Of a DNA stretch of 46,054 bases, positions 3,487-46,014 are shown in pieces. This DNA is from Escherichia virus ECH1: sequence record MN164484.2, one strand, 5' to 3'. Under the pieces are notes generated by a model. It was not told where the DNA came from. It did no database searches and worked only from the letters and a program-made list of their open reading frames with translations. The translations under genes and the position numbers were made by a program. How positions within the stretch are numbered: position 1 is the first letter of the stretch; every line of letters begins with the position of its first letter.

Positions 3487-3561
3487 GCTCTGTTAGCTTA
3501 ATGGAAAAAGCCGCAGCCTTCTAAGCTGTTGATGGTGGTTCGACTCCACCACGGAGCGCCA
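3487..3561 (+). tRNA. tRNA-Arg (anticodon TCT), CCA encoded
   Basis: Manual cloverleaf: acceptor GCTCTGT/ACGGAGC (one G-U), D-stem GCTT/AAGC, anticodon stem GCAGC/GCTGT, loop CTTCTAA with U33 and A37, T-arm GGTGG-TTCGACT-CCACC, discriminator G then CCA. Confidence 0.8.
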
Positions 3562-4400: not shown

Positions 4401-5969
4401 ATGTCTTTAGTGTGGGAAGAAATGACCATTCAGGAAAAGATGGCCGTCAAGGCGATATCAGAGCATAGTTTTGAGGGCTTTTTAAGGTGTTGGTTTTCAA
4501 TAACACAAGGCGAGCGATACATCCCTAACTGGCATCACAAGTATCTTTGCCGAATTATCGACGAGATTATTGCCGGGGAGCGCAAGGACACTATCATCAA
4601 CATAGCGCCCGGTAGCGGTAAGACAGAGATCGCTTCAATCCATTTCCCAGCCTACTCAATGGTTAAGCTGAAGAAGGTGCGAAACCTCAATATATCTTTT
4701 GCCGACTCACTGGTAAAGCGCAACTCCAAGCGCGTGCGTGACCTTATCAAGTCACCAGAATTTCAGTCGCTTTGGCCTTGCAAGTTTGGCACGTGCAAGG
4801 ACGATGAGCTTCAGGTTCTTGATGAGAGCGGGAAGGTTAGGTTTGAGTCAATATCAAAGGCGGCGGGAGGTCAGATTACTGGCGCTCGTGGTGGCTATAT
4901 AACCGAAACATATAGCGGGGCCGTCTTATTAGATGATTTTGACAAGCCCGCAGATATGCTATCAGCAGTCTACCGAGCAAATAACCATGTAATGCTAAAA
5001 AACACAATTCGCTCCCGTCGTGCGAGTTCTGTAAAGGGAAAGGCAACGCCAATCATTTCGATACAGCAGCGATTGCACGTTAATGACTCAACCTGGTTCA
5101 TGATGGAAGGTGGGATGGGTATCGAATTCGATTTGATTAAGATACCAGCGTTGGTAACTGAGGATTACCTAGACACACTACCTGAATGGATTAAAGAACA
5201 GTTTGAAGAGGATGTCCTTAGTAGTGAATACATAGAGCGCGATGGAGTAAGGTATTACAGCTACTTCCCTAAAAAGGAGTCAGTCAATGACTTGGTTGCG
5301 ATGTGGGATAGTGACCCTTACACCTTCCTTAGTCAGTATCAACAAGAACCAGTAGCTCTAGGTGGCAACCTTATTAACGTAGATTGGTTCCAGCGCCTTA
5401 GCGACACGTTCAGACCTCCCGCTAAGTACGATTATAGATTTATAACTTGCGATACAGCTATGACTACAAAAAGTTATAGTGACTTCTCTGTCCTTCAATT
5501 GTGGGGTTATAAAGATGCTAAGATTTACCTTATTGACCAGCGCAGGGGGAAATGGGAAGCGCCCGAGTTAGAGGCAGAGTTAATCGATTTCGAGAAGAAA
5601 TCAAGGGCAACCAGTCAATCGGATGGTATCCTCCGAAAGATTATCATCGAGAAGAAAGCATCTGGAATCGGACTCATTCAATCAGCAAGTCGAGTCATGA
5701 GAACGCCAGTGGAACCTTATGTTCCTGATAATGACAAGTTAACAAGGGTGATGAGTGCGCTGCCACAGATTAAGGCTGGTAACGTAGTTCTTCCTGAGTC
5801 TGCGCCGTGGTTAAGCGGATTGCTTACTGAGATTGCGGCATTTACCGCTGACGACAGCCACAATCACGACGACCAAATTGATACCATGACAATGGCTATC
5901 AACCTGGTTCTGAACATTGCGGATGATCCTAAGGCGAGACTGATGCGCATAGCGGGAAAAATGAAATAG
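4401..5969 (+). CDS. terminase large subunit
   Basis: 522 aa; P-loop-like GSGKT near the N-terminus; C-terminal acidic nuclease-like motifs (DDFD, HNHDDQIDT); position before portal. Confidence 0.85.
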   Translation: MSLVWEEMTIQEKMAVKAISEHSFEGFLRCWFSITQGERYIPNWHHKYLCRIIDEIIAGERKDTIINIAPGSGKTEIASIHFPAYSMVKLKKVRNLNISFADSLVKRNSKRVRDLIKSPEFQSLWPCKFGTCKDDELQVLDESGKVRFESISKAAGGQITGARGGYITETYSGAVLLDDFDKPADMLSAVYRANNHVMLKNTIRSRRASSVKGKATPIISIQQRLHVNDSTWFMMEGGMGIEFDLIKIPALVTEDYLDTLPEWIKEQFEEDVLSSEYIERDGVRYYSYFPKKESVNDLVAMWDSDPYTFLSQYQQEPVALGGNLINVDWFQRLSDTFRPPAKYDYRFITCDTAMTTKSYSDFSVLQLWGYKDAKIYLIDQRRGKWEAPELEAELIDFEKKSRATSQSDGILRKIIIEKKASGIGLIQSASRVMRTPVEPYVPDNDKLTRVMSALPQIKAGNVVLPESAPWLSGLLTEIAAFTADDSHNHDDQIDTMTMAINLVLNIADDPKARLMRIAGKMK

Positions 5970-12434: not shown

Positions 12435-13091
12435 ATGGCCCATCTTAGTAATGGAACTCAAGTGTTCGTTGAAGGTTCTCGTGGCGACGCTGTTGCAGTT
12501 ACAGCAATCTCTAACGCAGCAAGCCCTGTTCTAACTGTAGATGACGCATCTGGTATCGCGGCTGGTGATTACCTGCTGTTTACCGCGTCTGCTTCCACCC
12601 TTCTTGCTGACAAGCAGGTTCGAGTTACCTCAGTTACTGGCACGTCAATCACTGTAGAAGGTATCGATACTTCTAATACCACTAAATTCCCGGCTGGTTT
12701 GACTGGTGAAGTGGTTAAGATTCTTTCATGGTTCGAAGTTCCGTGCGTTCAGGACGTATCTACTGACGGCGGCGAGCAGCAGTTCGTTAACTTCCAGTGT
12801 CTTTCTGATGACCGTGAACAGCAGATTCCGACTTATAAATCTGCCGTAACAAACACCTTTACCTTTGCTCACGAGTACACCAACCCGGTTTATCCGGTTC
12901 TGCGTAACTACGATGAGTCTGGCCAGGTTGTTGCGATTCGCCTGTTCGTACCTCGCGCTCAGGAAATGCGCTTGCAGTCCGGCACTATCGCTTTCAACGA
13001 CACGCCAACAATTGGTGTTAACGAAATCGAAACGGTATCTATCGCTGTATCCATTCGTGGTCGCTTGTCCTCCGTGGCAGCTGAAGTTTAA
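12435..13091 (+). CDS. major tail (tube) protein (putative)
   Basis: 218 aa, Thr/Ser/Val-rich; position before the chaperone pair; terminator follows. Confidence 0.6.
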   Translation: MAHLSNGTQVFVEGSRGDAVAVTAISNAASPVLTVDDASGIAAGDYLLFTASASTLLADKQVRVTSVTGTSITVEGIDTSNTTKFPAGLTGEVVKILSWFEVPCVQDVSTDGGEQQFVNFQCLSDDREQQIPTYKSAVTNTFTFAHEYTNPVYPVLRNYDESGQVVAIRLFVPRAQEMRLQSGTIAFNDTPTIGVNEIETVSIAVSIRGRLSSVAAEV

Positions 13092-13099
13092 AACACAAA

Positions 13100-13124
13100 C
13101 CCTCTTCGGAGGGAATTTTTTATT
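13100..13124 (+). terminator. rho-independent terminator (CCCTC-TTCG-GAGGG plus AATTTTTTATT)
   Basis: Hairpin plus T-rich run. Confidence 0.55.
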
Positions 13125-13169
13125 GATAGCACTTTTTGTTAAAGACTAAAAATCAAAATGCTGTATAGT
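13125..13169 (+). promoter_or_regulatory. conserved promoter-like cassette (GATAGCACTTTTTGTTAAA, 20 nt, TATAGT)
   Basis: Motif 13125-13143; TATAGT 13164-13169; leader ATCATCGAAACGAAATGAG; ATG 13202. Confidence 0.5.
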
Positions 13170-13201
13170 TAAATCATCGAAACGAAATGAGAAATTAAGA
13201 A

Positions 13202-13468
13202 ATGAATAGTAAGTTAGAAGTATTATCCGCACTTCGCGGCCCTATTTGTGTAGCTGCGCTGGTTGCCTTTTATGCAGCAGTTCAGATTATCAACCCAACA
13301 AGAGCGGAAACAGCAAACTCTGACGCGGCAAAATACAATTCGGTTTTCTCTGAGCACAAGGCAATCTGCGAGAAGGCTTCTGGTAGCAAGATTGAGCAGG
13401 TTCTGAAGTATGGCAAGGAAATCTGCGTAGATATCGCGCACGACATTGCAAAAGAAAGCACTAAGTAA
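13202..13468 (+). CDS. moron: small secreted/membrane protein (88 aa, four Cys)
   Basis: N-terminal hydrophobic segment ICVAALVAFYAAVQII; own promoter-like cassette; sits between tail tube and chaperone genes. Confidence 0.45.
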   Translation: MNSKLEVLSALRGPICVAALVAFYAAVQIINPTRAETANSDAAKYNSVFSEHKAICEKASGSKIEQVLKYGKEICVDIAHDIAKESTK

Positions 13469-13504
13469 TACAATAATCAAACACTAAAAAAGAGGATTAA
13501 CGAG

Positions 13505-13819
13505 ATGGCAAAGTTCAAACTTTCACTAGCGGCACTACCTGACTTTAAACTGCCTGTAAAATTCAAGCTAGCTAACGACCAGGATGTAGAGGTTATGTTC
13601 ACAGTTAAGCACAAGAAAACTTCTGAACTGCAGGAGTTGCTTAACAAGGAAAACCTGAGCACTAAAGAGCTTATTATGGCAATTGCCTCTGATTGGGATT
13701 TAGAGGAAGAGTACAATGAGGAAAACGTTAATGAGTTCTCCGATCTGTTCCCGACTTCAACCGTTGCTTTGACTACTGCTTACATGCAGGCACTGGCGGG
13801 TCAGCGAGTAAAAAACTAA
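13505..13819 (+). CDS. tail assembly chaperone (gpG-like)
   Basis: 104 aa acidic protein just upstream of the tape measure; ends in slippery heptamer A AAA AAC. Confidence 0.65.
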   Translation: MAKFKLSLAALPDFKLPVKFKLANDQDVEVMFTVKHKKTSELQELLNKENLSTKELIMAIASDWDLEEEYNEENVNEFSDLFPTSTVALTTAYMQALAGQRVKN

Positions 13820-14139
13820 AGAGGGCGATGTATCTACAGTACCAGTCAGAGCCAACTGATGCCGAGCTGGAAGCTATTGGGATGCGCCGCTCTGATTACG
13901 AAGATGAAGAGCCCGAGGTTTTACACTTCGACGAGAACATGATGAAGGCTTGGGACATTTATTGTTCAATGGCTACACAATGGAGAGTCGGAGCTAACGG
14001 AGCTACAGGGCTAGATTACAACGTGCTAAATTTCCTCTTTAGAGTGTATAATGTTTCTGAAGAAGAATTGGTGCTCAGCGATTTACGCATCCTTGAAGCT
14101 AAGGCTCTTGAGATGATGGATAACCTGAGAAAAAAATAA
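13505..14139 (+). CDS. tail assembly chaperone G-T fusion via programmed -1 frameshift at 13810-13816
   Basis: Canonical X XXY YYZ heptamer A AAA AAC in the zero frame; the -1 frame is open and in phase with ORF 13828-14139. Confidence 0.6.
13828..14139 (+). CDS. gpT-like chaperone extension ORF (103 aa; may also be translated from its own ATG)
   Basis: ATG with RBS GAGGG; in phase with the -1 frame of the upstream chaperone. Confidence 0.5.
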   Translation: MYLQYQSEPTDAELEAIGMRRSDYEDEEPEVLHFDENMMKAWDIYCSMATQWRVGANGATGLDYNVLNFLFRVYNVSEEELVLSDLRILEAKALEMMDNLRKK

Positions 14140-14160
14140 CCCGCTTCGGCGGGTTTTCTA
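14138..14160 (+). terminator. rho-independent terminator (AACCCGC-TTCG-GCGGGTT plus T-run)
   Basis: Hairpin identical to the one at 9399-9420. Confidence 0.6.
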
Positions 14161-14174
14161 TTATGGAGGCTTAG

Positions 14175-17162
14175 ATGGCAACAAATGAATTAGCCGGAAT
14201 CACACTAGCCGTAGATGTCTCGCAAGTAGACAGGGGCACGCAATCCCTGCAAAAGTTCAGGCAGGCAAACCAGCAAGCCGCTTCCGGAATTAGTGAATTC
14301 GTCAATGCTGAGCAGGTCGCAAAAGACCAAGCCAGAGACACGGCTCGCGCACTGGCTGAACAGCAAGCATCTTTAGCTAAATTGCAAACAGCTATTGACC
14401 CAACTGCGGCAAAGTTCCGTAAGCTGCAAGAGGCTGCTGTAGGTCTGGATAAGGCTTTCGCGGCTGGCGTAGTTCCTGATGAGGAGTTTTTCCGGTTAGG
14501 TGAGGCACTTGAAACTCAGAACGCAAAACTTGCTCGTTCACGTGCTGCGCTAACTGAAGAGGGAAGGGCTGCGGCGCAGGCTGCAAAGGATAAGGCAAAA
14601 GCAAAGGCTGAAGCTGACAGGTTCATTGCATCACTTGAGCGACAGGCTCAAGCGGCAACATTGACGCGTGAGGAGTACTTGAAGTTACAGGCTGCTCAGC
14701 TTGGCGTAAGCTCTCAGGCTGCACCCATCATTGACAGAATCGCCGACGCATCACAGAAGGCAAGCACCCAGTTAATCGCTCAGAGCAAGGCTTTTCAGCG
14801 CTCTGGCTTAAGCGCAGGTCAATACAAGAATGCCATATCTCAACTACCAGCGCAGATTACTGATATTGGCACGTCGCTTGCTGGAGGCATTCCGATTTGG
14901 CTTATTGCAATTCAGCAGGGTGGGCAGATCAAGGATGCATTTGGCGGTATTGGTAACACCTTTAGATTCGCGCTTGCAGCCTTAAACCCATTTAATGTAG
15001 CTGTTGGTGTTTTGGGTGGCGCACTTATTGCTCTTGGTGTTGGTGCAGCTCAGGCTGAAAGTGAATTCAGAGCATTAAACTCCGCAATTGCTTTCTCCAA
15101 CAACTCTACAATCGCATCAATCTCGCAGGTTAGAGAGTTGGTTAGCTCTGTTTCTGATGCAACAGGTGCTACCAGAGGACTTGTGACTAGCATCGCAACA
15201 AGCCTTATTGAGCAAGGGAACCTTACGCTGACGCAGATTGACAAGATTACTAAATCGACCGCAAGATGGGCGCAGTTGACAGGTAAGGATGCGAAGGAGA
15301 TTACTGGTTACTATAACCAGATTGCAAGCGACCCAATCCAGGGTTTAGTTGATTTGGATAAGCGCTTTAACTTCCTCACACAGGGGCAGTTGACGACAAT
15401 CGAAAACCTGAGAAAGACAAAGGGAGAAGTTGAGGCCGTTACTGCTGCGATTGATATTTTCAGCAAGTCTCAGGAAGCCAACCTTAACGACATAGCTGCG
15501 CAGTTAACTCCGCTTGAGCTAGCCTGGAATGATTTCAGAAAGTACATCTCTGATATCTGGGATGCAATTAGTCGTAGAACGGTCGGGGCGCTGAACCTAT
15601 TTGTTGACGTAATCGCCGGAACGATTGAACAGATCAGGGTATTCATTAACCAGGGTGATGTTCTGATTGGTGAATTCGTAATTAGCGCAACTCAGGCATT
15701 GCAGAACATTCCTGGTCTTGATGGCGTTGGTGATGATGTTATCAAGGGGCAGCAGAAGATTATCGATGCCGCCAAGAAGCAAAACCTTGAGCTAGAGAAG
15801 TCTATCAAGGAGCGAGATGCCAGAATCAGAGAGGGAGAGCTTGGTTACGTTACTCGCAGAGAAAATCAGAATACCAATGAGCAGTCAGGTACTGATGAGG
15901 AATTTGCAAAAAGGAAGAAGGCGCTTCAGGATGAGCTTGATGCGATCAAGAAGAACAGGAAAGAAGAAAATAGTAGGGTTAAGGAGCAAAGAGATTTAAC
16001 AATTGGTTATGAATCTGGCGTTCTGGCGCTTCAGGCTCAACTCAAGGTGCTTCAGGAAAACAGGGATATTGGCGCAGTAATAAGCAATGAGCGCAAACAG
16101 TATCTTCAGGAGGAGGCCAAATTCAGGATTCTTGAGCAGAGACAACTTGATGGCTCAATTACCAAAGAGCAAGCAAGACTTCTCATTGAAAAGGATAAAG
16201 TTCTTGAGTTAGCCAGACAGAAGGCTGAGCTAGGTGATCAGATTGTTTTGCAGGAGCGAGCTAATAAGTTAGCTGAAGATAACCGCAAGAAGATTCTTCA
16301 GATTAACAATGAGGCAAGTAACATTGATTTGGGTGCTGGTTTATCATCTCGCGAGCAGCAGAGAGCAAAAGAGATTCAGGCTCTTCAATCCAATCAGGTT
16401 AATGCTGGTGGTTCTGTTGATGATGTTGATTTTCAGCAACTTCTCGAAGCAAGAAAGAAATGCTATGCTCAGGAGGATGCGCATACGTGCAACTGGCTCG
16501 CTGGCGTAACAACAAATCTTGCTACCTGGGCTCAGAGCGCGACGGAATGCACTCAAATTGCTGGAAGTTTCACCACGACAGTCTTTGAAGGTATTACAGA
16601 CCAGATTACAAACCTTGTATCCACTGGTGAGACGAACTTCAGGGATTTTACTGTTAGCATCCTTAAGCAGATTGCTAAGATTGCAACCCAGCTTCTTTTT
16701 GTTAAGGCTATTGAGTCTAGCTTATGTAGCTTCGGTGGTGGTGGCGCTAATGCATTTGGTTCGATTGCATCTGGTTTTGGGTTCGCTACCGGCGGTTACA
16801 CTGGGGATGGTGGGAAGTATCAGCCAGCCGGTACGCTGCATCGTGGAGAGTTTGTATTCACAAAAGAAGCGACAAGCCGAATTGGTGTTAAGAACCTTTA
16901 CGCACTGATGAAAGGTTACGCAAACGGCGGAGCGGTTGGTGGTCCATCTGGTTATTCTGGTGGTGGTTTGGTTTCTGGAGGATCAGATGTTAATGTTAGC
17001 GGTATCACTGTTAACGTTAATGGTGGCGTTGGTAGCGACCCAGAGCAAGCAAAGGCGTTGCAAAACGGCGTTAAGGCCATCGTAGCGGAAGAGATTGCGC
17101 AGTCTTTCCAGCAGGGTGGGCGTGCTTATGCTTACCTTCGCGGATTCAACTACTACCACTAA
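14175..17162 (+). CDS. tail tape measure protein
   Basis: 995 aa, coiled-coil Ala/Gln/Lys-rich, hydrophobic central segments, Gly-rich C-terminus; position after chaperones. Confidence 0.9.
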   Translation: MATNELAGITLAVDVSQVDRGTQSLQKFRQANQQAASGISEFVNAEQVAKDQARDTARALAEQQASLAKLQTAIDPTAAKFRKLQEAAVGLDKAFAAGVVPDEEFFRLGEALETQNAKLARSRAALTEEGRAAAQAAKDKAKAKAEADRFIASLERQAQAATLTREEYLKLQAAQLGVSSQAAPIIDRIADASQKASTQLIAQSKAFQRSGLSAGQYKNAISQLPAQITDIGTSLAGGIPIWLIAIQQGGQIKDAFGGIGNTFRFALAALNPFNVAVGVLGGALIALGVGAAQAESEFRALNSAIAFSNNSTIASISQVRELVSSVSDATGATRGLVTSIATSLIEQGNLTLTQIDKITKSTARWAQLTGKDAKEITGYYNQIASDPIQGLVDLDKRFNFLTQGQLTTIENLRKTKGEVEAVTAAIDIFSKSQEANLNDIAAQLTPLELAWNDFRKYISDIWDAISRRTVGALNLFVDVIAGTIEQIRVFINQGDVLIGEFVISATQALQNIPGLDGVGDDVIKGQQKIIDAAKKQNLELEKSIKERDARIREGELGYVTRRENQNTNEQSGTDEEFAKRKKALQDELDAIKKNRKEENSRVKEQRDLTIGYESGVLALQAQLKVLQENRDIGAVISNERKQYLQEEAKFRILEQRQLDGSITKEQARLLIEKDKVLELARQKAELGDQIVLQERANKLAEDNRKKILQINNEASNIDLGAGLSSREQQRAKEIQALQSNQVNAGGSVDDVDFQQLLEARKKCYAQEDAHTCNWLAGVTTNLATWAQSATECTQIAGSFTTTVFEGITDQITNLVSTGETNFRDFTVSILKQIAKIATQLLFVKAIESSLCSFGGGGANAFGSIASGFGFATGGYTGDGGKYQPAGTLHRGEFVFTKEATSRIGVKNLYALMKGYANGGAVGGPSGYSGGGLVSGGSDVNVSGITVNVNGGVGSDPEQAKALQNGVKAIVAEEIAQSFQQGGRAYAYLRGFNYYH

Positions 17163-17200
17163 ATGGTAAAGCCAAAAGGATTTGGCTTGCTATCATCAAC

Positions 17201-17703
17201 ATGTTAAAAGCATCAGGTGATAAACTGAAGTGGAATGATATCCCTGAGTATAGAGATTTTGTCCTTTATTGGAAGATTTCAACAAGCAACATATCAAGAA
17301 AAAAGATTGGTGATGTTGCGGGTAATCAAATGAATGATGGATACATAATGGTTCAGGCATTAAACAAAAGAATGCTTGCTCATAGGGTTGTTTGGGAAAT
17401 GCATAATGGCAGTATAACTAATGGCATGCATATAGACCATTTAAACCACATAAGGAATGACAACAGGATAGAAAACCTAAGACTGGTGTCAAGAACAGAA
17501 AACAACAGGAATAAATCAGTCAAAAGTAAACAAAACAGGTGTTTCAGGAGTTACATTAAAAGATGGGCTATTTCAGGTTTCGATAGGTGGAGAAAAAAAC
17601 AAGACTTACATAGGAAGGTTCTACACACTGGATCAGGCTACAGCAGCAAGGAAATCCGCAGAATTTCAACTATGTTACCACAATTATCATGGGGGATTTA
17701 ACT
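17201..17703 (+). CDS. HNH-AP2 homing endonuclease, frame-disrupted (HNH in one frame, AP2 domain in the +1 frame from about 17530)
   Basis: HNH motif HRVVWEMHNG...IDHLNH...NRIENLRLVSRTENN; alternate-frame AP2-like NKTGVSGVTLKDGLFQVSIGGEKNKTYIGRFYTLDQATAARKSAE; paralog of 39194-39688. Confidence 0.6.
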
Positions 17704-17704
17704 G

Positions 17705-18052
17705 ATGGCTATTGATACTTTTAACTCGTGCACGCAAATACAGGGTGGATCCAGCTCATTCAGCAACACGAACAACCTGCGACTTGTTAGCTTCGGAAAT
17801 GGTTTTGAGCAAAGAGGAACTGGTGGTTATCGCACCACCCTGAGCGCATACTCACTGACATACACCAACAAGGATTGGAGAGATGTTGACTTTTGTTTAA
17901 ACCACATCATTACCCCGTTCTTCTGGACTACGCCGCAGGGTGACACATCCATGTTCGTAATTCAGCAGGATAGCATTAGCGTTACACCACTCAGCGAGGA
18001 AGTTCAGACTGTAAACATGCAATTCGTGGAAGTCTTTAGCTCAATGCGTTAA
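17705..18052 (+). CDS. minor tail protein (lambda gpM-like)
   Basis: 115 aa, in the M position before the L, K, I, J series. Confidence 0.65.
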   Translation: MAIDTFNSCTQIQGGSSSFSNTNNLRLVSFGNGFEQRGTGGYRTTLSAYSLTYTNKDWRDVDFCLNHIITPFFWTTPQGDTSMFVIQQDSISVTPLSEEVQTVNMQFVEVFSSMR

Positions 18053-35746: not shown

Positions 35747-36166
35747 ATGAAGATTACAGATAAAGAAGATTACATTGAGTTTTACCCGGGTGCTGTAAAA
35801 TCATGTCCAAAGGAGGATGACGAACAAATCTTTTGCTCTGATTGGGTTAAGTACCATTATCCGCAGATTGTTTACTGGCACACGATTAATGAAAATAAGA
35901 AGACCATAGGGCAAGCAAGAAAAGACCAGGCGAAAGGACTCCTTAAGGGCGTATCAGACTGCTTATTCCTGATACCTGAATCAATGCGAGGCAAATACCC
36001 TTTTGGAGCCATAGAGCTAAAGAGGGCAGGAAAAACTCAAGCAAGCCCTGTTAGCGATGAACAAAAGGTTTTCTTAAAAAGCGTAAGGGAATCAGGCGGT
36101 TTCTCTGCTGTAGCCTACGGTCGCGAAGGTTTTCTTGCAGCATTCAAAGAAATGATTTCAAAATAG
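35747..36166 (+). CDS. VRR-NUC domain nuclease
   Basis: GVSDCLFLIPE...AIELKRAG resembles the D-x(n)-E-x-K VRR-NUC signature. Confidence 0.55.
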   Translation: MKITDKEDYIEFYPGAVKSCPKEDDEQIFCSDWVKYHYPQIVYWHTINENKKTIGQARKDQAKGLLKGVSDCLFLIPESMRGKYPFGAIELKRAGKTQASPVSDEQKVFLKSVRESGGFSAVAYGREGFLAAFKEMISK

Positions 36167-37403: not shown

Positions 37404-37648
37404 TCGTTGAAACCGGACGCGCCGCAGTGTGGGCTCATTGTGGAGAGGCTGGATTGCAAGATGACATTAAGCAGATATCTAGATTCTTTGATATAAAAGA
37501 TATCAGCGTCGTGTTCAATGGCAAATTCTCTTACATGGATGAGCGCCCAAGAAAATACGTAAGAGTTAAGCCAGGCGTCAGGATTGATGTTAACGAGTTC
37601 CTTAAATCTGAGGGATTCAAGTTTAAGATAACGAAGCCTAAGGATTGA
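37400..37648 (+). CDS. hypothetical protein (82 aa)
   Basis: ORF with ATG. Confidence 0.4.
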   Translation: MIVETGRAAVWAHCGEAGLQDDIKQISRFFDIKDISVVFNGKFSYMDERPRKYVRVKPGVRIDVNEFLKSEGFKFKITKPKD

Positions 37649-37902
37649 GTATGTTGGGTTTAGATTTTCAGCCAGAGCATTACGATTTAGTATATGGTCA
37701 AAGTGGTGCAAAGTTTAGAGCGATACCTATTGCTGATTGGTTCCCTACTGATTATGTGGATGTGAACGCAAAAACTAAAGACGGGAAGTGGGTTCAGATT
37801 TATTACTCACCAGCATGCGGAAACCTTTGTATGACTGACATTGATCAGAAATTAGCAATTAGTGCGGAAGTTATAGACTACTGGTTGAAAGAAGTTGAAT
37901 GA
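37645..37902 (+). CDS. hypothetical protein (85 aa)
   Basis: ORF with ATG. Confidence 0.4.
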   Translation: MSMLGLDFQPEHYDLVYGQSGAKFRAIPIADWFPTDYVDVNAKTKDGKWVQIYYSPACGNLCMTDIDQKLAISAEVIDYWLKEVE

Positions 37903-37985
37903 AGAGCCTGATACTAGTAGCATTAGTCCAACTATTTAGCTTTACTATCTTATATTTTATCGTAATGAATTAAGGAACTTATATA

Positions 37986-39122
37986 ATGGCAACTGCAAAA
38001 ATTACCAACGAACAGCTTCTTGAAGAGCTGATTAACGGCATGACCAACAAGGCCATTGCAGAGAAGTACGGAATGAACATTCGCAATGTTGAGTTGCGTC
38101 GCAGTAAATTGGCGAAGCAGGGTGAAGGGCATGGAAACCCAGGCATCAAGAAGCTAGTTCCTGACGGTTATTTGGTCAAAGGCACATCAACGATGATTGA
38201 TGCCGAAGGTAACGAAAAGCTGCGCTGGGTTAAAACATCCGTAGATAATGAGCGCCTTGAGGTTTTAATGGAGCAAGCTCGAGAAGCATTCTGCTCTGAT
38301 TTGCCAAAGGCTATTCCATCTGAATCACCGAATGTTAACTTTGATGACAACACGCTTGCGATGTATCCAGTCTTTGACTTGCACATTGGAGCAATGGCTC
38401 ACAAACATGAGTGTGGCGAAAACTACGACACAGCAACAGCAGAGAAGGTTATGAATGGTTTCTTTGACTACGCTGTAGATAAGGCTCCGAACTCAAAGAA
38501 TGCCGTGCTTGTTCTTGGTGGTGATTTCTTGCATTACGATTCATTAGAGGCAAAAACACCAGCGTCAGGCCATATCTTAGATTCTGACAGCCGTTACGCA
38601 AAGATTGTTTATGTCGCAATCCGTTCAGTGCGACGTGCAATTTCTAGAATGATGGAAAAGCATCAAGTTATTGATATTAAAGTAATAAGTGGAAACCACG
38701 ACGAGGCAGGGATGGTTTGGCTGCGCGCTGCGCTTGCTGCGTTTTATGAAGATGAACCGCGCGTAAATGTTGATGTTAGCCCAGCCGCAATGATGATGAC
38801 CAGCTTTGGAACTACGCTTATTGGATACACCCACGGGCATCAAATGCGAAAAGCAGATACGCGACTAACTGTTATGGCAACCGATTTTCGTAAGTTATTT
38901 GGTCAAAGTGAGTATGTTTACACACATAGTGGTCACTGGCATTCGCAGAAGATTACAGAAACAAACTTGGGTATTGATGAGGTTCATGGGCAGCTTGGAA
39001 GCCCTGACGCGTACTCAGCAAATGGCGGATGGCGCTCTCAACGTCAAGCGGCGGTTATTGTCTACCATAAAGAATTCGGTGAAGTTGGCCGCTTCATTTG
39101 TCGCCCTAAAATGTTTGGATAA
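37986..39122 (+). CDS. metallophosphoesterase (calcineurin-like) with N-terminal HTH-like segment
   Basis: Motifs LVLGGDFLHYD, GNHDE, HGHQ, HSGHWH. Confidence 0.6.
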   Translation: MATAKITNEQLLEELINGMTNKAIAEKYGMNIRNVELRRSKLAKQGEGHGNPGIKKLVPDGYLVKGTSTMIDAEGNEKLRWVKTSVDNERLEVLMEQAREAFCSDLPKAIPSESPNVNFDDNTLAMYPVFDLHIGAMAHKHECGENYDTATAEKVMNGFFDYAVDKAPNSKNAVLVLGGDFLHYDSLEAKTPASGHILDSDSRYAKIVYVAIRSVRRAISRMMEKHQVIDIKVISGNHDEAGMVWLRAALAAFYEDEPRVNVDVSPAAMMMTSFGTTLIGYTHGHQMRKADTRLTVMATDFRKLFGQSEYVYTHSGHWHSQKITETNLGIDEVHGQLGSPDAYSANGGWRSQRQAAVIVYHKEFGEVGRFICRPKMFG

Positions 39123-39139
39123 TAGCACATTTTGTTAAA
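39121..39139 (+). promoter_or_regulatory. motif copy (AATAGCACATTTTGTTAAA) followed by hairpin GCCGCGAAAGCGGC
   Basis: Motif overlaps the phosphoesterase stop; precedes the HNH-AP2 gene. Confidence 0.4.
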
Positions 39140-39193
39140 ACAGTAGCCGCGAAAGCGGCTATTATTGTTTTATACAAACGGGAGGGGATTTAA

Positions 39194-39688
39194 ATGGATT
39201 GGAATGATTTTCTTGAGTATAGAGATGGCAGGCTTTACTGGACTGGCCCGCATTCAACAAAACTCAAGCCAGGTGATGAGGCTGGCAGCAGTCACCATAG
39301 GTGTTATTGGTACATTCGCAGATATGACAAAACAATGTCAAGGCACAGAATCGTATGGGAGATGCACAACGGACCAATACCAGAAGGCATGGAGATAGAT
39401 CATATAAATCACGCCCCTGTTGATGACAGGATTGAAAACCTAAGAATGGTCACAAGAAGGCAAAACAATCAAAACAAGAAATTAGATGGAAGAAATACAA
39501 GCGGACACGTCGGGGTCAGCTGGAACAAGAAGACAAACAAATGGAGAGCAATGATAGGCATAAAGGGAGAGGACGGAAAGAGGAAAACTCTATACGTTTA
39601 CTATGGTGATTCTTTCGATGACGCAGTGTCAGCAAGAAAGAGAGCTGAGGTTGAGTACTCATTTCACGAAAATCACGGAAGAAGCTAG
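39194..39688 (+). CDS. HNH-AP2 homing endonuclease (intact)
   Basis: HNH motif HRIVWEMHNG...IDHINH...NRIENLRMV followed by AP2-like SGHVGVSWNKKTNKWRAMIG...YYGDSFDDAVSARKRAE. Confidence 0.75.
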   Translation: MDWNDFLEYRDGRLYWTGPHSTKLKPGDEAGSSHHRCYWYIRRYDKTMSRHRIVWEMHNGPIPEGMEIDHINHAPVDDRIENLRMVTRRQNNQNKKLDGRNTSGHVGVSWNKKTNKWRAMIGIKGEDGKRKTLYVYYGDSFDDAVSARKRAEVEYSFHENHGRS

Positions 39689-39735
39689 AAATAGCACTTT
39701 TTGCCTAAAGCATGCCGTATAAATGCGGCATAATT
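39689..39735 (+). promoter_or_regulatory. conserved promoter-like cassette (AATAGCACTTTTTGCCTAAA, CATAAT)
   Basis: Leader CCACATCGAAACGAGATGAGG; ATG 39765. Confidence 0.5.
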
Positions 39736-39764
39736 ACCACATCGAAACGAGATGAGGAATTGTA

Positions 39765-40238
39765 ATGATTTACGTATTTGATATCGATGGAACTATAGCT
39801 AATAATGAACATAGAAGTCACCTCTTGCCATGCAGTGACCTTCACTTGACTTCAAGTTGGAAGGATTACAATAAAGCCTGTTCTGGAGACTTACCAATAA
39901 TCCCAATGATAAACATGATGAACAAACTTGCGGAATTATGTCAGGTTTACATTATGACCTCCAGAAGTGATGAAGTTGAATGGAGAACACTTGAGTGGCT
40001 TCAGGATAATGAGGTTGAGTATGATTCGATATACATGAGAAGTCGACATGACAACCGAAAAGATTACAAAATAAAAGAGGAATGGCTTAATGAAATCAGT
40101 GGTGGCGATAAAAGCAATGTGGTTATTTTTGAAGATAACCCACAAGTAATTAAGCACCTAAGGAGTTGCGGATACACCGTTATGGCTGTATGTGAATATG
40201 AAGAACTACCTAAAGATTGCGAATCTCACGGAGACTGA
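39765..40238 (+). CDS. HAD-superfamily phosphatase (nucleotidase / polynucleotide 3-prime-phosphatase-like)
   Basis: HAD motif I FDIDGT, motif II IMTSR, Lys-containing and FEDN motifs. Confidence 0.55.
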   Translation: MIYVFDIDGTIANNEHRSHLLPCSDLHLTSSWKDYNKACSGDLPIIPMINMMNKLAELCQVYIMTSRSDEVEWRTLEWLQDNEVEYDSIYMRSRHDNRKDYKIKEEWLNEISGGDKSNVVIFEDNPQVIKHLRSCGYTVMAVCEYEELPKDCESHGD

Positions 40239-40240
40239 AA

Positions 40241-40795
40241 ATGACTAAATTATTTATCCTTAATGGCCCCGCTGGAGTTGGTAAGGATACTATAGCGGAT
40301 ATCATGGTTGAGACTGGTGTCGCCAAAGAAAAGGTATCATTCAAGTCACCAATGTTTAACGTTGCTAGAGGCATTCTTTCAATAGATGAATTCGATTGGT
40401 TTATTGAAAACTACAACAATCGCGACGAGAAGGAGAAACATCAGAAAATTCTAGGTGGAAAAAGCATTCGAGAGTTCATGATCTGGATTAGCGAGTCTGT
40501 AATGAAGCCAGTCTTTGGTGATGATGTTTTTGGTAAAAGGCTCGCCCAATCACTTAGTGATGGTTGCTACATTTGCGCTGACGGTGGATTTGCTAGCGAG
40601 ATTAAGCCACTGATCGACGCTGGTGTTGAGGTCACGTTAATCAGATTGCATAGGGCTGGGCACACATTTGATGGAGATAGTCGCTCATACATTCACGGGG
40701 TGTGCGCAAGAGAAATTGATGTTCGTGTTGTTGGTGGTGATATTGATGGAACATCAGCATTGGTAAGGCACGTAATAAATAGCACTAACTGCTAA
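40241..40795 (+). CDS. P-loop nucleotide kinase (dNMP kinase / polynucleotide kinase-like)
   Basis: Walker A GPAGVGKDT near the N-terminus; ATG 40241 with RBS GGAG; C-terminus NSTNC encoded by the motif. Confidence 0.55.
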   Translation: MTKLFILNGPAGVGKDTIADIMVETGVAKEKVSFKSPMFNVARGILSIDEFDWFIENYNNRDEKEKHQKILGGKSIREFMIWISESVMKPVFGDDVFGKRLAQSLSDGCYICADGGFASEIKPLIDAGVEVTLIRLHRAGHTFDGDSRSYIHGVCAREIDVRVVGGDIDGTSALVRHVINSTNC

Positions 40796-40821
40796 AGATA
40801 ATAATAAAAACTGAGTTATCA
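40778..40821 (+). promoter_or_regulatory. conserved promoter-like cassette (AATAGCACTAACTGCTAAA, TATCAT)
   Basis: Leader CACATCGAAACGAGCTGAAAC; ATG 40864. Confidence 0.5.
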
Positions 40822-40863
40822 TTAACACATCGAAACGAGCTGAAACAAACGAGGAAACACAAG

Positions 40864-41040
40864 ATGACTAAAATGATTTATTGCACCAAGAACAACTCAA
40901 AGACGCTTCCATTTACAGTTAACCGGCCGTACAATGCAGAGTATCAGGGTGACGGATATTACAAGATTTACGGAGACGATATGACGTGGATTTTAGCACC
41001 GATTGATGGTTCGCTTGTTGAATTTATTATCGCAGAATAG
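40864..41040 (+). CDS. hypothetical protein (58 aa)
   Basis: ORF after the motif promoter. Confidence 0.35.
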   Translation: MTKMIYCTKNNSKTLPFTVNRPYNAEYQGDGYYKIYGDDMTWILAPIDGSLVEFIIAE

Positions 41041-41058
41041 CGCATCTAAAACATAGCT

Positions 41059-41090
41059 TTACAAGTGGGGGCCTTTTGGCTCCCAATTTT
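41059..41090 (+). terminator. terminator-like hairpin (GGGGGCC-TTTT-GGCTCCC) plus AATTTTTT
   Basis: Hairpin with one G-U pair, T-run follows. Confidence 0.45.
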
Positions 41091-41169
41091 TTGCTTCTTT
41101 TCCGAACAGGGCTACTGTATCATGTTTACACTAACTTAAACATTGACAAATAGACAAATTGAGGATCAC

Positions 41170-42589: not shown

Positions 42590-44173
42590 TCACCCTATTA
42601 CACGTGGATTAACATAAACACGGTCATCAATCATGCAAACGTAGTTACGTTCTTCAAGCATTGGGATTAAGTGGTCCTTAATCTTCGTCATTACGCCAGC
42701 TTGAGCCTCGAATGGTTTAACCTTTCTAGCAGCCTCATACAATGCACGAAGGCTAACAAAACCTTTACCAGCTTTACCCATTTTTAAAGCCAGGTCGATA
42801 AGTTTGTTCATCTCAGCATTATCCCCAGCATGACCAGCGGCATTAGCAGAAGATAAATATGTTTTGCTTAACTCGTTAAACATTAATACCGCCTCCTGCA
42901 TGGTTTCTAATTCAATCTCACGAGACTTTTTAGGATTGCCACCTTCTTCAGATACCCAATTGCGAACAGTATGAATAACCGAAGCTATACGGATTGCCTG
43001 CTTGTCAAATTTACCAAGTGCGCCTCGTAACATAGTGTGACTGTATTTACCTCCATCACGTAAGTGCGGTTCCATATCCTGGCGAGCACGGTTTAGATAA
43101 CGCATGGCTGAATCACTAATAGTTAGCTTAACATCCACCTCACTCATGATGTTGTGAATAAGTTTAAAGTAAGTCGCCTTAAGCGCTCCATCAATAGGTT
43201 CATAAGTTGAGCGACCTTCATCATCAACAAAAACACGCTCACCTAAGAATGATTTCTCACGAACAAGCAAAAAACGCTCCGATACACCGATACCGCGAGC
43301 ACCAGCATTCATGATTGCGTTGATTGTCTCATCTTGTGCAATTACAGAGATGCAACCCAGCGCAGTAAAAGACATGTTGTTTTCAGCGTTAGCACGAGCA
43401 ATAGAAACATCGCCAGAGTCCCATGCCTTAAGAACCAATTCACTGTTTGTCTTTTTGCTCCCGTCTCCATAAGTCATGCCTAATAATGAGTTTACAGAAG
43501 TTGCTTCATCAGATATTACAGCAAAGTTACCTTGACGGAAGTTAATTCGCGCAAGACCTTCTGGAGTTGTATCAGATACTGGAAAAACAACATCGCATAA
43601 CTTCTCTAACTTCTCCTCAAGATTCTCTTTATCCTCAAATAATCTCGCCATTTCAGAAGGTGATTGCTCCTGCTTCATTTCTTTAGCGAGAGAAGATAGT
43701 TTTGCCATAATCTTTTTTCGTTCACGCTTACGTTCCTCGTTGATTCTGTCTCGTTCAGCAATCATTGGCGCAGTTGCCAGGCTGTTAATTGCTGATTTAC
43801 CAGTTGAAGGAGGTTGGCTTGTAACAACATAAAGCGCGGTTGGCTGAGTTGTTCCGTGATACTCAACGGTAAAACGACCCAGCATTGCAGAAGATACGCA
43901 GCCTAAAAAGTGCATATAGGCAGAAGATGATGGGAACTGTACTGATCGGGCGATGTTGGCTGACAGCTTGCCTACCACATCAAAATCATTCCCGAGGCTT
44001 ATTACAGGATATTTATCATTGCAATTCTCAACCTCTACTGGGTCCTTCCAGAATGACTGAGCATATCGCATACCGTTCGCTTTAATTGCCACACGAAGCG
44101 GGGAGATGCCTTGCTGCTGCGCAATAGTCATAACCTGGTCAACACTCAACTTACTGGATTCGAACTCAAACAT
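42590..44173 (-). CDS. large P-loop NTPase of unknown function (candidate replication-associated ATPase)
   Basis: 527 aa; Walker A-like QPPSTGKS; RBS GGAG; no further recognisable motifs. Confidence 0.4.
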   Translation of the reverse strand: MFEFESSKLSVDQVMTIAQQQGISPLRVAIKANGMRYAQSFWKDPVEVENCNDKYPVISLGNDFDVVGKLSANIARSVQFPSSSAYMHFLGCVSSAMLGRFTVEYHGTTQPTALYVVTSQPPSTGKSAINSLATAPMIAERDRINEERKRERKKIMAKLSSLAKEMKQEQSPSEMARLFEDKENLEEKLEKLCDVVFPVSDTTPEGLARINFRQGNFAVISDEATSVNSLLGMTYGDGSKKTNSELVLKAWDSGDVSIARANAENNMSFTALGCISVIAQDETINAIMNAGARGIGVSERFLLVREKSFLGERVFVDDEGRSTYEPIDGALKATYFKLIHNIMSEVDVKLTISDSAMRYLNRARQDMEPHLRDGGKYSHTMLRGALGKFDKQAIRIASVIHTVRNWVSEEGGNPKKSREIELETMQEAVLMFNELSKTYLSSANAAGHAGDNAEMNKLIDLALKMGKAGKGFVSLRALYEAARKVKPFEAQAGVMTKIKDHLIPMLEERNYVCMIDDRVYVNPRVIG

Positions 44174-45968: not shown

Positions 45969-46014
45969 AGTATACGCACATCGATTCAATATGTCTTTAG
46001 CCAAAAGTGCTATT
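45969..46014 (-). promoter_or_regulatory. conserved promoter-like cassette on the minus strand (AATAGCACTTTTGGCTAAA, 21 nt, TATACT)
   Basis: Read as reverse complement; followed by an untranslated leader of about 210 nt. Confidence 0.45.

Follow-up and report, generated by a model that had tools for sequence, protein, structure and literature searches.

In bacteriophage T4, the breakdown of host DNA to nucleotides requires gp46/47 (Rad50/Mre11), and deoxynucleoside monophosphates (dNMPs) are phosphorylated by gp1. T4-type polynucleotide kinase-phosphatases (Pnkp) consist of an AAA_33 kinase domain and a HAD phosphatase domain and have a partner RNA ligase, and the Pnkp of Clostridium thermocellum (CthPnkp) has a kinase–phosphoesterase–ligase layout. 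Here we describe a locus of Escherichia virus ECH1 (sequence record MN164484.2; the whole analysed stretch of 46,054 nucleotides (nt) is referred to as the window) in which genes for a metallophosphoesterase (gp18), a stand-alone HAD phosphatase (gp16), and a P-loop kinase (gp15) lie together on the plus strand between positions 37986 and 40795.

The locus has elements in common with each of these systems. gp15 resembles T4 gp1 (PDB 1DEK) in its phrog_139 profile, its GxGKDT P-loop, and its fold, but it is shorter (184 versus 241 amino acids (aa)), seemingly without the large gp1 insertion as judged by reading of the sequences, and its core motif is DGGF, whereas that of gp1 reads as DTR. gp16 has the HAD phosphatase domain PF25109 in common with the Pnkp enzymes of T4 and Capnocytophaga (PDB 1LTQ and 4XRP; phrog_505), whereas gp15 is unrelated to the AAA_33 domain and the window genome has no partner RNA ligase. 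gp18 contains the five metallophosphoesterase motifs of Mre11/SbcD, including GDxxH and GNHD, and these proteins are among its top fold matches. Instead of a Rad50/SbcC partner, gp18 has an N-terminal helix-turn-helix (HTH) domain, and no Rad50/SbcC-type (SMC-like) ATPase is found among the annotated genes of the genome. Some phage versions of the locus combine a P-loop kinase, a metallophosphoesterase, and a ligase as in CthPnkp and Pnkp-Hen1, but here the kinase is of the gp1 type, a HAD phosphatase is added, and any ligase is a DNA ligase of the T7 type. Hen1 is not annotated in the window genome, and the CthPnkp phosphatase domain was not seen among the top fold matches of gp18. The PUA-Calcineurin-CE-HAD anti-phage system also pairs a calcineurin-type phosphoesterase with a HAD protein acting on deoxynucleotides, but it is a host defence that depletes deoxynucleoside triphosphates (dNTPs), uses a PUA sensor, and has no kinase; its likeness to the present locus is drawn from its described composition (PMC12871103).

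A comparison of 3.6 kb of the window (37500-41100) with Escherichia phage vB_EcoS_ACG-M12 (JN986845 / NC_019404) gave 99.3% identity; this T1-like phage is classified under NC_019404 in Drexlerviridae, Braunvirinae, Guelphvirus, and its record is likewise 46,054 bp long. The window thus corresponds to a complete phage genome, so that genome-wide negatives such as the lack of a ligase can be tested. T1 and TLS are known to break down host DNA and reuse its nucleotides, and the 2024 re-annotation of TLS described the responsible genes as unidentified (PMC11447400). T1 mutants impaired in degrading the host chromosome reportedly show a raised frequency of transduction (refs 46 and 47 cited in PMC11447400). 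In the KanT1 paper (2026), genes annotated as “polynucleotide kinase” and “dNMP kinase” were noted to follow often a “DNA repair exonuclease” gene in Drexlerviridae, and nucleotide supply was guessed as the role of the two kinase-annotated genes (PMC13164509). Our literature searches found no experimental work on gp18, gp16, or gp15, and no description of a cassette shared between phage families or of HAD–kinase fusions. The component families are known and the genes are annotated in public records; the cassette and the fusion of a HAD domain with a gp1-type kinase combine them in a new way.

A conserved and mobile phage cassette

The sequence-only reading, a model's interpretation of the letters and open reading frames, had pointed to four genes at the locus, and all of them are present as stated: gp18 (37986-39122, 378 aa), gp17 (39194-39688, 164 aa; a homing endonuclease), gp16 (39765-40238, 157 aa), and gp15 (40241-40795, 184 aa from the ATG). 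It had also drawn attention to the clustering of the three enzyme genes, and this clustering proved to be genuine and functionally linked. In a census of 80 IMG/VR loci centred on kinase homologues, the HAD gene was located upstream of the kinase gene on the same strand in 69 (adjacent in 28, and spaced by 0.15–2.2 kb containing small open reading frames or HNH genes in 41). In 24 of the 80 loci, a gp18 homologue was additionally found upstream.

The trio has been assembled in at least four unrelated phage backbones, one of them with a different gene order. In Kagunavirus K1ind1, it consists of three overlapping genes on the opposite strand between tail genes. In Erwinia phage Era103 (Autographiviridae), genes for a phrog_704 phosphoesterase, a HAD protein, and a kinase precede one for an ATP-dependent DNA ligase. 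The layout of Aeromonas phage Aer_P220 matches this one, ligase included, except that its phosphoesterase belongs to phrog_221, and Proteus phage Pm5460 has a phrog_221 phosphoesterase, a kinase, and a ligase. The Pm5460 phosphoesterase was considered as a gp18 orthologue and rejected (E 0.14, phrog_221); we regard it as an analogous protein in the same position. Incomplete or dispersed versions also occur. In T1, HAD, HNH, and kinase genes are in the early left arm and the phosphoesterase gene is approximately 35 kb away. Rtp has the phosphoesterase and HAD genes without the kinase gene, a 41.7-kb contig has the order phosphoesterase–HNH–kinase, and the HAD gene of Xanthomonas phage Bosa abuts an ATP-dependent DNA ligase gene. 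Elsewhere, kinase homologues adjoin genes for exonuclease, endonuclease VII, ribonucleotide reductase, and nucleoside deoxyribosyltransferase.

Two natural fusions, P0293 (403 aa) and P0295 (461 aa), carry a HAD_PNKP domain at the N-terminus and a gp1-like kinase at the C-terminus. P0293 is encoded on a 60.7-kb phage-like contig, where the next gene encodes a protein that aligns with gp18 over its whole length at 41% identity, and P0295 is on a contig of 1.9 kb that offers no useful context. Taken as a whole, the order kept across backbones, the rearranged version, the non-orthologous phosphoesterase in the same slot, and the fusions are strong evidence that the genes are functionally coupled. 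The phosphoesterase–HAD–kinase trio is conserved and mobile among phages, and chance does not account for its clustering.

The three enzymes

gp18 matches the PHROG profile phrog_704, “DNA repair exonuclease”, with an E value of 4e-155. Its score against Pfam Metallophos (PF00149) is 18.5 bits, which is under the gathering cut-off of 21.5, and the assignment is carried by motifs and fold. Specifically, all five metallophosphoesterase motifs (D131-x-H133, G179-D180, G236-N237-H238-D239, H283/H285, and G316-H317-x-H319) are present and invariant across 20 homologues. The fold search returned the metallophosphoesterase fold with modest scores; the nearest proteins were MJ0936, SbcD, and Mre11, with the small phosphodiesterase MJ0936 at the top. 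gp18 is a divergent calcineurin-like metallophosphoesterase. The first ~45 residues form a three-helix bundle with weak similarity to LuxR/FixJ-type HTH domains (approximately residues 8-44), and this region is kept even in a homologue of 41% identity. These features make gp18 a putative Mre11/SbcD-like DNA nuclease. It is 98% identical to Rtp rtp61, ~88–91% to Tunavirus proteins, and ~70% to the proteins of SU57 and OzMSK.

gp16 scores 62.3 bits against PF25109 (HAD_PNKP; cut-off 27.6) and belongs to phrog_415 (E 5e-53). Its DxDxT nucleophile motif is D6-I-D8-G-T10. Among solved structures, the phosphatase domain of Capnocytophaga Pnkp1 is closest in sequence (PDB 4xrp, E 8e-4), and the corresponding domain of the Krischvirus W115 Pnkp, an enzyme of the T4 type, is 30% identical (E 8e-10). 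Residues were mapped to T4 Pnkp by chaining the gp16–W115 alignment to an alignment of W115 with T4 (1LTQ). D165 and D167 of T4 Pnkp correspond to D6 and D8 of gp16, R176 to R17, R213 to R67, D254 to D100, K258 to K104, and D277-D278 to E123-D124, so that every mapped position is occupied, with identical residues except for the change of D277 to glutamate. We take the mapped T4 residues to be those found essential by mutagenesis in the Shuman laboratory. True Pnkp proteins fall into phrog_505 and reach 178 bits on PF25109, compared with phrog_415 and 62 bits for gp16. As judged from these alignments, gp16 is a stand-alone paralogue of the phosphatase half of Pnkp. The stand-alone HAD gene of Krischvirus W115 overlaps nrdB at the end of that gene, and the genome encodes a full Pnkp and an RNA ligase at other sites, so that the stand-alone HAD protein cannot simply be equated with “the Pnkp phosphatase”.

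The more conservative proposal of the sequence-only reading, a dNMP kinase plus a nucleotidase, holds for the kinase but is unsupported for the HAD protein. At E ≤ 0.01, gp16 matched only HAD_PNKP, NIF, Acid_phosphat_B, and HAD_2 in Pfam and only HAD-SF-IIIA in NCBIfam, and no 5′-nucleotidase family was among these matches. The RefSeq name of gp16, “polynucleotide kinase”, is wrong because the protein has no kinase domain. Stand-alone HAD proteins of phrog_415 are widely named “polynucleotide kinase” or “3′-phosphatase, 5′-polynucleotide kinase” in phage records, and this misnaming has spread from similarity to T4 PseT. The present assignment thus corrects a widespread annotation error in RefSeq and many phage records.

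gp15 matches phrog_139, “deoxynucleoside monophosphate kinase”, with an E value of 1.2e-42 over profile positions 82-259, and T4 gp1 matches the same span (83-261) with an E value of 1.8e-65. There is no Pfam match for gp15. An AlphaFold model built from 25 homologues is confident, with a predicted local distance difference test score (pLDDT) of 92.8, and a Foldseek search independently ranked 1DEK first, indicating a gp1-like fold; T4 Pnk was not among the 50 matches listed. Structural alignments with T4 gp1 give 16–18% identity. Sequence and profile searches against PDB returned a P-loop match only, hhalign with T4 gp1 aligned just the first 38 residues, and the MAFFT alignment misaligned the C-terminal half of gp1. 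The family assignment therefore rests on the shared PHROG profile and the fold searches.

The earlier suggestion that the phosphatase and kinase resemble the two halves of a Pnkp thus applies to gp16, by its PF25109 match, its 30% identity to the W115 domain, and its mapped residues, and fails for gp15, for which comparison with the Pnk kinase domain detected no similarity (E 21). A “split PNKP” was accordingly rejected for the kinase half, whose top fold match is gp1, with T4 Pnk absent from the 50 matches listed. Pnk-type kinases have a catalytic Asp after strand 2; as read from motifs, without residue-level alignment to a Pnk, an invariant lysine of gp15 (Lys35) appears to take its place, and the gp15 homologues have no invariant acidic residue near it. 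In the two characterised relatives, gp1 and phosphomevalonate kinase (the latter a name that one source gives to a gp15 homologue), the acceptor is a phosphate group and not a hydroxyl. By analogy with the T4 gp1 family and fold, from which its substrate is also taken, gp15 is a gp1-type nucleotide (dNMP) kinase rather than an RNA/DNA-end kinase.

The gp15 family comprises 4,041 cluster representatives at E ≤ 1e-3 and is almost wholly viral; in ~186,000 species-representative genomes, homologues were found at two loci, both on phage-sized contigs of metagenome-assembled genomes. The ATG of gp15 is located 2 nt past the gp16 stop codon and its GGAG ribosome-binding site (RBS) is within the last gp16 codons. 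This junction indicates that gp15 is translationally coupled to gp16.

Possible roles of the cassette

We favour a role of the cassette in host-DNA recycling, a reading to which we give about an even chance, in which a nuclease, a 3′-phosphatase, and a dNMP kinase would feed phage DNA precursors. gp18, with its HTH domain and its metallophosphoesterase, would bind DNA and degrade it to 5′-dNMPs. gp16, as a member of the Pnkp phosphatase family, would then strip 3′-phosphates from DNA ends or from 3′-phosphorylated nucleotides, by which the ends would stay open to exonuclease or 5′-dNMPs would be produced. Finally, gp15, if its substrate is that of T4 gp1 as family and fold suggest, would convert dNMPs to deoxynucleoside diphosphates, from which host Ndk would make dNTPs. 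The HAD–kinase pair is probably expressed from its own promoter-like unit, of a type also found before the helicase gene and other early genes, with translational coupling between the two genes. The division of labour would parallel that of T4, with gp46/47 for DNA breakdown and gp1 for dNMP phosphorylation, and the PseT 3′-phosphatase has reportedly been linked to DNA metabolism. In agreement with the nuclease step, a mycobacteriophage metallophosphoesterase damages host DNA (PMC12287305). The exonuclease, endonuclease VII, ribonucleotide reductase, and nucleoside deoxyribosyltransferase genes found next to kinase homologues, and the overlap of the W115 HAD gene with nrdB, also favour recycling. 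The cassette is a concrete candidate for the unidentified genes by which T1-like phages degrade the host chromosome and reuse it. Its practical significance is moderate, since the families are known, the genes are already annotated, and the function is a prediction.

Several observations speak against recycling. Its weak point is the phosphatase: nucleases of the metallophosphoesterase type and most E. coli nucleases leave 3′-OH and 5′-phosphate ends, so that it is not obvious what a 3′-phosphatase would act on in salvage. The gp18 gene belongs to the Drexlerviridae core and is often distant from the HAD and kinase genes, as in T1. In Era103, Aer_P220, and Pm5460, the cassette is immediately next to a gene for an ATP-dependent DNA ligase, as is the HAD gene in Bosa. 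In addition, the fusion of phosphatase and kinase suggests two actions on one molecule, which fits the healing of nucleic-acid ends at least as well. For end healing, the HAD protein would remove 3′-phosphates, a gp1-fold kinase would have been recruited as a 5′-OH polynucleotide kinase, and the phosphoesterase would trim or open blocked or cyclic-phosphate ends before sealing by host LigA here, or by the phage DNA ligase in Autographiviridae, thereby mending breaks made by host defence nucleases. That gp16 is a true PNKP-family phosphatase is in line with such a role, as is the domain order of the HAD–kinase fusions, which is that of mammalian PNKP; the phosphoesterase–HAD–kinase–DNA ligase order in Era103 and Aer_P220 and the HAD–ligase pair in Bosa also recall CthPnkp, and Rtp and TLS-like phages encode an Stp-like peptide close to their HAD gene. 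We nevertheless consider end healing unlikely. The kinase lacks similarity to Pnk kinase domains, the enzymes closest to it in sequence and fold, T4 gp1 and phosphomevalonate kinase, act on a phosphate and not on a hydroxyl, and the motif reading puts Lys35, with no invariant acidic residue nearby, in place of the catalytic Asp. Neither a ligase nor an Stp homologue is present in the window, and Krischvirus possesses a complete Pnkp and an RNA ligase besides its stand-alone HAD protein. Adjacency to a ligase carries little weight because the DNA ligase gene of T7 is also near the gene of a proven nucleotide kinase. The fuller proposal, in which the cassette (with the DNA ligase of Autographiviridae, and fused in some cases) would be an unrecognised end-healing system in which a gp1/phosphomevalonate-kinase-fold kinase replaces a Pnk-type kinase and, jointly with the PNKP-type 3′-phosphatase and the metallophosphoesterase, mends 3′-phosphate/5′-OH breaks that host defence nucleases introduce into phage DNA or RNA, seems distinctly unlikely to us; if true, it would represent a new architecture of nucleic-acid repair enzymes.

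A role in conflict over the nucleotide pool is also improbable in our estimate. As counter-defence, the cassette might re-phosphorylate dNMPs against dNTP-depleting defences, or might destroy nucleotides that act as danger signals, such as methylated dNMPs from the host chromosome or 3′-phosphorylated or cyclic signalling nucleotides. The pairing of a phosphoesterase with a HAD protein on nucleotides has a precedent in phage–host conflict: one bacterial defence, in which a calcineurin-type phosphoesterase is paired with a HAD phosphatase, responds to m6-dAMP released when the chromosome is broken down during phage attack and makes the dNTP pools collapse (PMC12871103). A dNMP kinase would oppose the dNTP-to-dNMP direction of that defence, and the cassette is mobile and patchy in distribution, moron-like among the tail genes of Kagunavirus. 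On the other hand, homology to known defence or anti-defence proteins was sought without success (no PADLOC matches), the HTH domain of gp18 points to DNA and not to small molecules, and ordinary salvage accounts for the kinase without defence. Least probable of all is that three independent DNA-metabolism genes merely share an early/middle expression block, which we regard as very unlikely. In its favour are the ~35 kb between the T1 phosphoesterase gene and its HAD and kinase genes, the phosphoesterase and HAD genes of Rtp without a kinase gene, and the many phages with HAD alone or kinase alone. Against such independence stand the HAD-to-kinase order at differing genomic positions in 69 of the 80 loci, the reassembly of the trio in at least four unrelated backbones (one reordered), the translational coupling, and the HAD–kinase fusions.

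The sequence-only reading had further connected the cassette to a phage-encoded tRNA-Arg as a possible counter-defence or nucleotide-salvage system, with reference to the T4 enzyme that repairs cleaved tRNA. The tRNA-Arg with anticodon TCT was found at 3487-3561, where it had been reported; it has an encoded CCA end and is located 34 kb from the cassette, upstream of the terminase genes. It occurs at the matching relative position in SU57 and Rtp and is absent from the syntenic region of T1, although T1 has the HAD and kinase genes. The Rtp homologue (4893-4969 of locus L095) is not annotated in RefSeq. AGA and AGG are the rarest codons in E. coli, and in the 70 cleanly translating coding sequences (CDS) of the window they are used at 11.0 and 7.7 per 1,000, respectively, together making up 40% of the arginine codons. 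This heavy use makes codon supply sufficient to explain the tRNA. We rejected the link between tRNA and cassette since the tRNA tracks lineage: Rtp has the tRNA and no kinase, and T1 has HAD and kinase genes and a syntenic region without the tRNA.

The earlier remark that no RNA ligase was recognised was borne out. No ligase is found among the 78 annotated CDS of the genome, and tblastn of the window with phage DNA and RNA ligases and the Pnk kinase domain returned nothing below E 0.4. A peptide like T4 Stp, the activator of the PrrC anticodon nuclease, was sought in the window and none was found. In the reading favoured here, the cassette does not act as a tRNA repair system of the T4 kind. 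Among relatives, Rtp rtp6 (30 aa; L095 2432-2524) is annotated as T4 Stp-like and is located 450 nt downstream of the stand-alone HAD gene, and the TLS-like loci L039-L060 encode similar peptides (HNEHVMQFYR) approximately 1–1.5 kb upstream of the HAD gene.

Homing endonuclease, promoter-like units, and neighbouring genes

gp17 (39194..39688, plus strand) is an HNH_3 + AP2 homing endonuclease (Pfam HNH_3, E 4.8e-20). It had been described as splitting the cluster; the gene indeed lies between the phosphoesterase and HAD genes, but no gene is interrupted. Relatives SU57 and OzMSK lack gp17 at this site, and its absence there indicates that it is a selfish insertion and no working part of the cassette. 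HNH genes occupy varied cassette junctions: phosphoesterase|HAD in the window and in L005 (2969-3451), HAD|kinase in T1 (L085 2966-3460), and phosphoesterase|kinase in L105 (3956-4243). The cassette has apparently been targeted by homing repeatedly. The HAD and kinase proteins are 86–94% identical to those of SU57 and OzMSK, and both genes are missing from this locus in Rtp. The junction between the Rtp-like gp18 and the SU57/OzMSK-like HAD and kinase genes falls at the HNH gene, which suggests recombination tied to the homing endonuclease.

The HNH insertion duplicated an intergenic unit, which was characterized by motif search and alignment of its copies. The copy at 39121..39190 on the plus strand, in front of the HNH gene, comprises a AATAGCACATTTTG box, a −35-like hexamer TTGTTA, a hairpin at 39142-39163, a −10-like hexamer TATTAT, and an RBS. 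The copy at 39690..39762, on the same strand and directly in front of the HAD–kinase pair, contains AATAGCACTTTTTG, CATAAT, and the RBS GAGATGAGG. The motif search found the unit 7 times in the window against 0.13 expected: on the plus strand at 1305, 13125, 33662, 37203, 39121, and 39690, before gp76, gp52, the helicase gene, gp21, the HNH gene, and the HAD gene, respectively, and on the minus strand at 46001, before gp01. Its consensus is AATAGCACTTTTTGTTAAAA, a stretch of ~17 nt in which a short hairpin is often formed, a hexamer resembling TATAAT, CATCGAAACGAGA-GAGG, and ATG. The copies resemble a family of phage promoters that have a conserved box upstream.

Downstream of the cassette, gp14 (40864-41040) encodes a 58-aa DUF7244 protein (Pfam E 4.9e-29), a stand-alone SH3-like domain. 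The KanT1 paper tied such a DUF7244 SH3-like protein to the lysis cassette of Drexlerviridae and counted only seven cases in which its gene occurs together with the two “kinase” genes (PMC13164509). ACG-M12 has this combination, with DUF7244 gp14 and both “kinase” genes.

Compared with NC_019404, the window shows scattered substitutions outside 12.9–17.8 kb, and 37986-40795 is nearly unchanged. The block at approximately 12900-17800 is frame-shifted, with ~650–750 mismatches/kb by position, consistent with a compensating pair of indels. Because of this offset, the CDS coordinates of NC_019404 give no proper translation of the tape-measure region in the window. Other DNA-processing genes flank the cassette, namely gp27 (35747-36166), which encodes a VRR-NUC nuclease immediately after the helicase gene, and gp09 (42590-44173, minus strand), which encodes a DUF3987 helicase/ATPase. 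Either of these proteins could add to the breakdown of host DNA.

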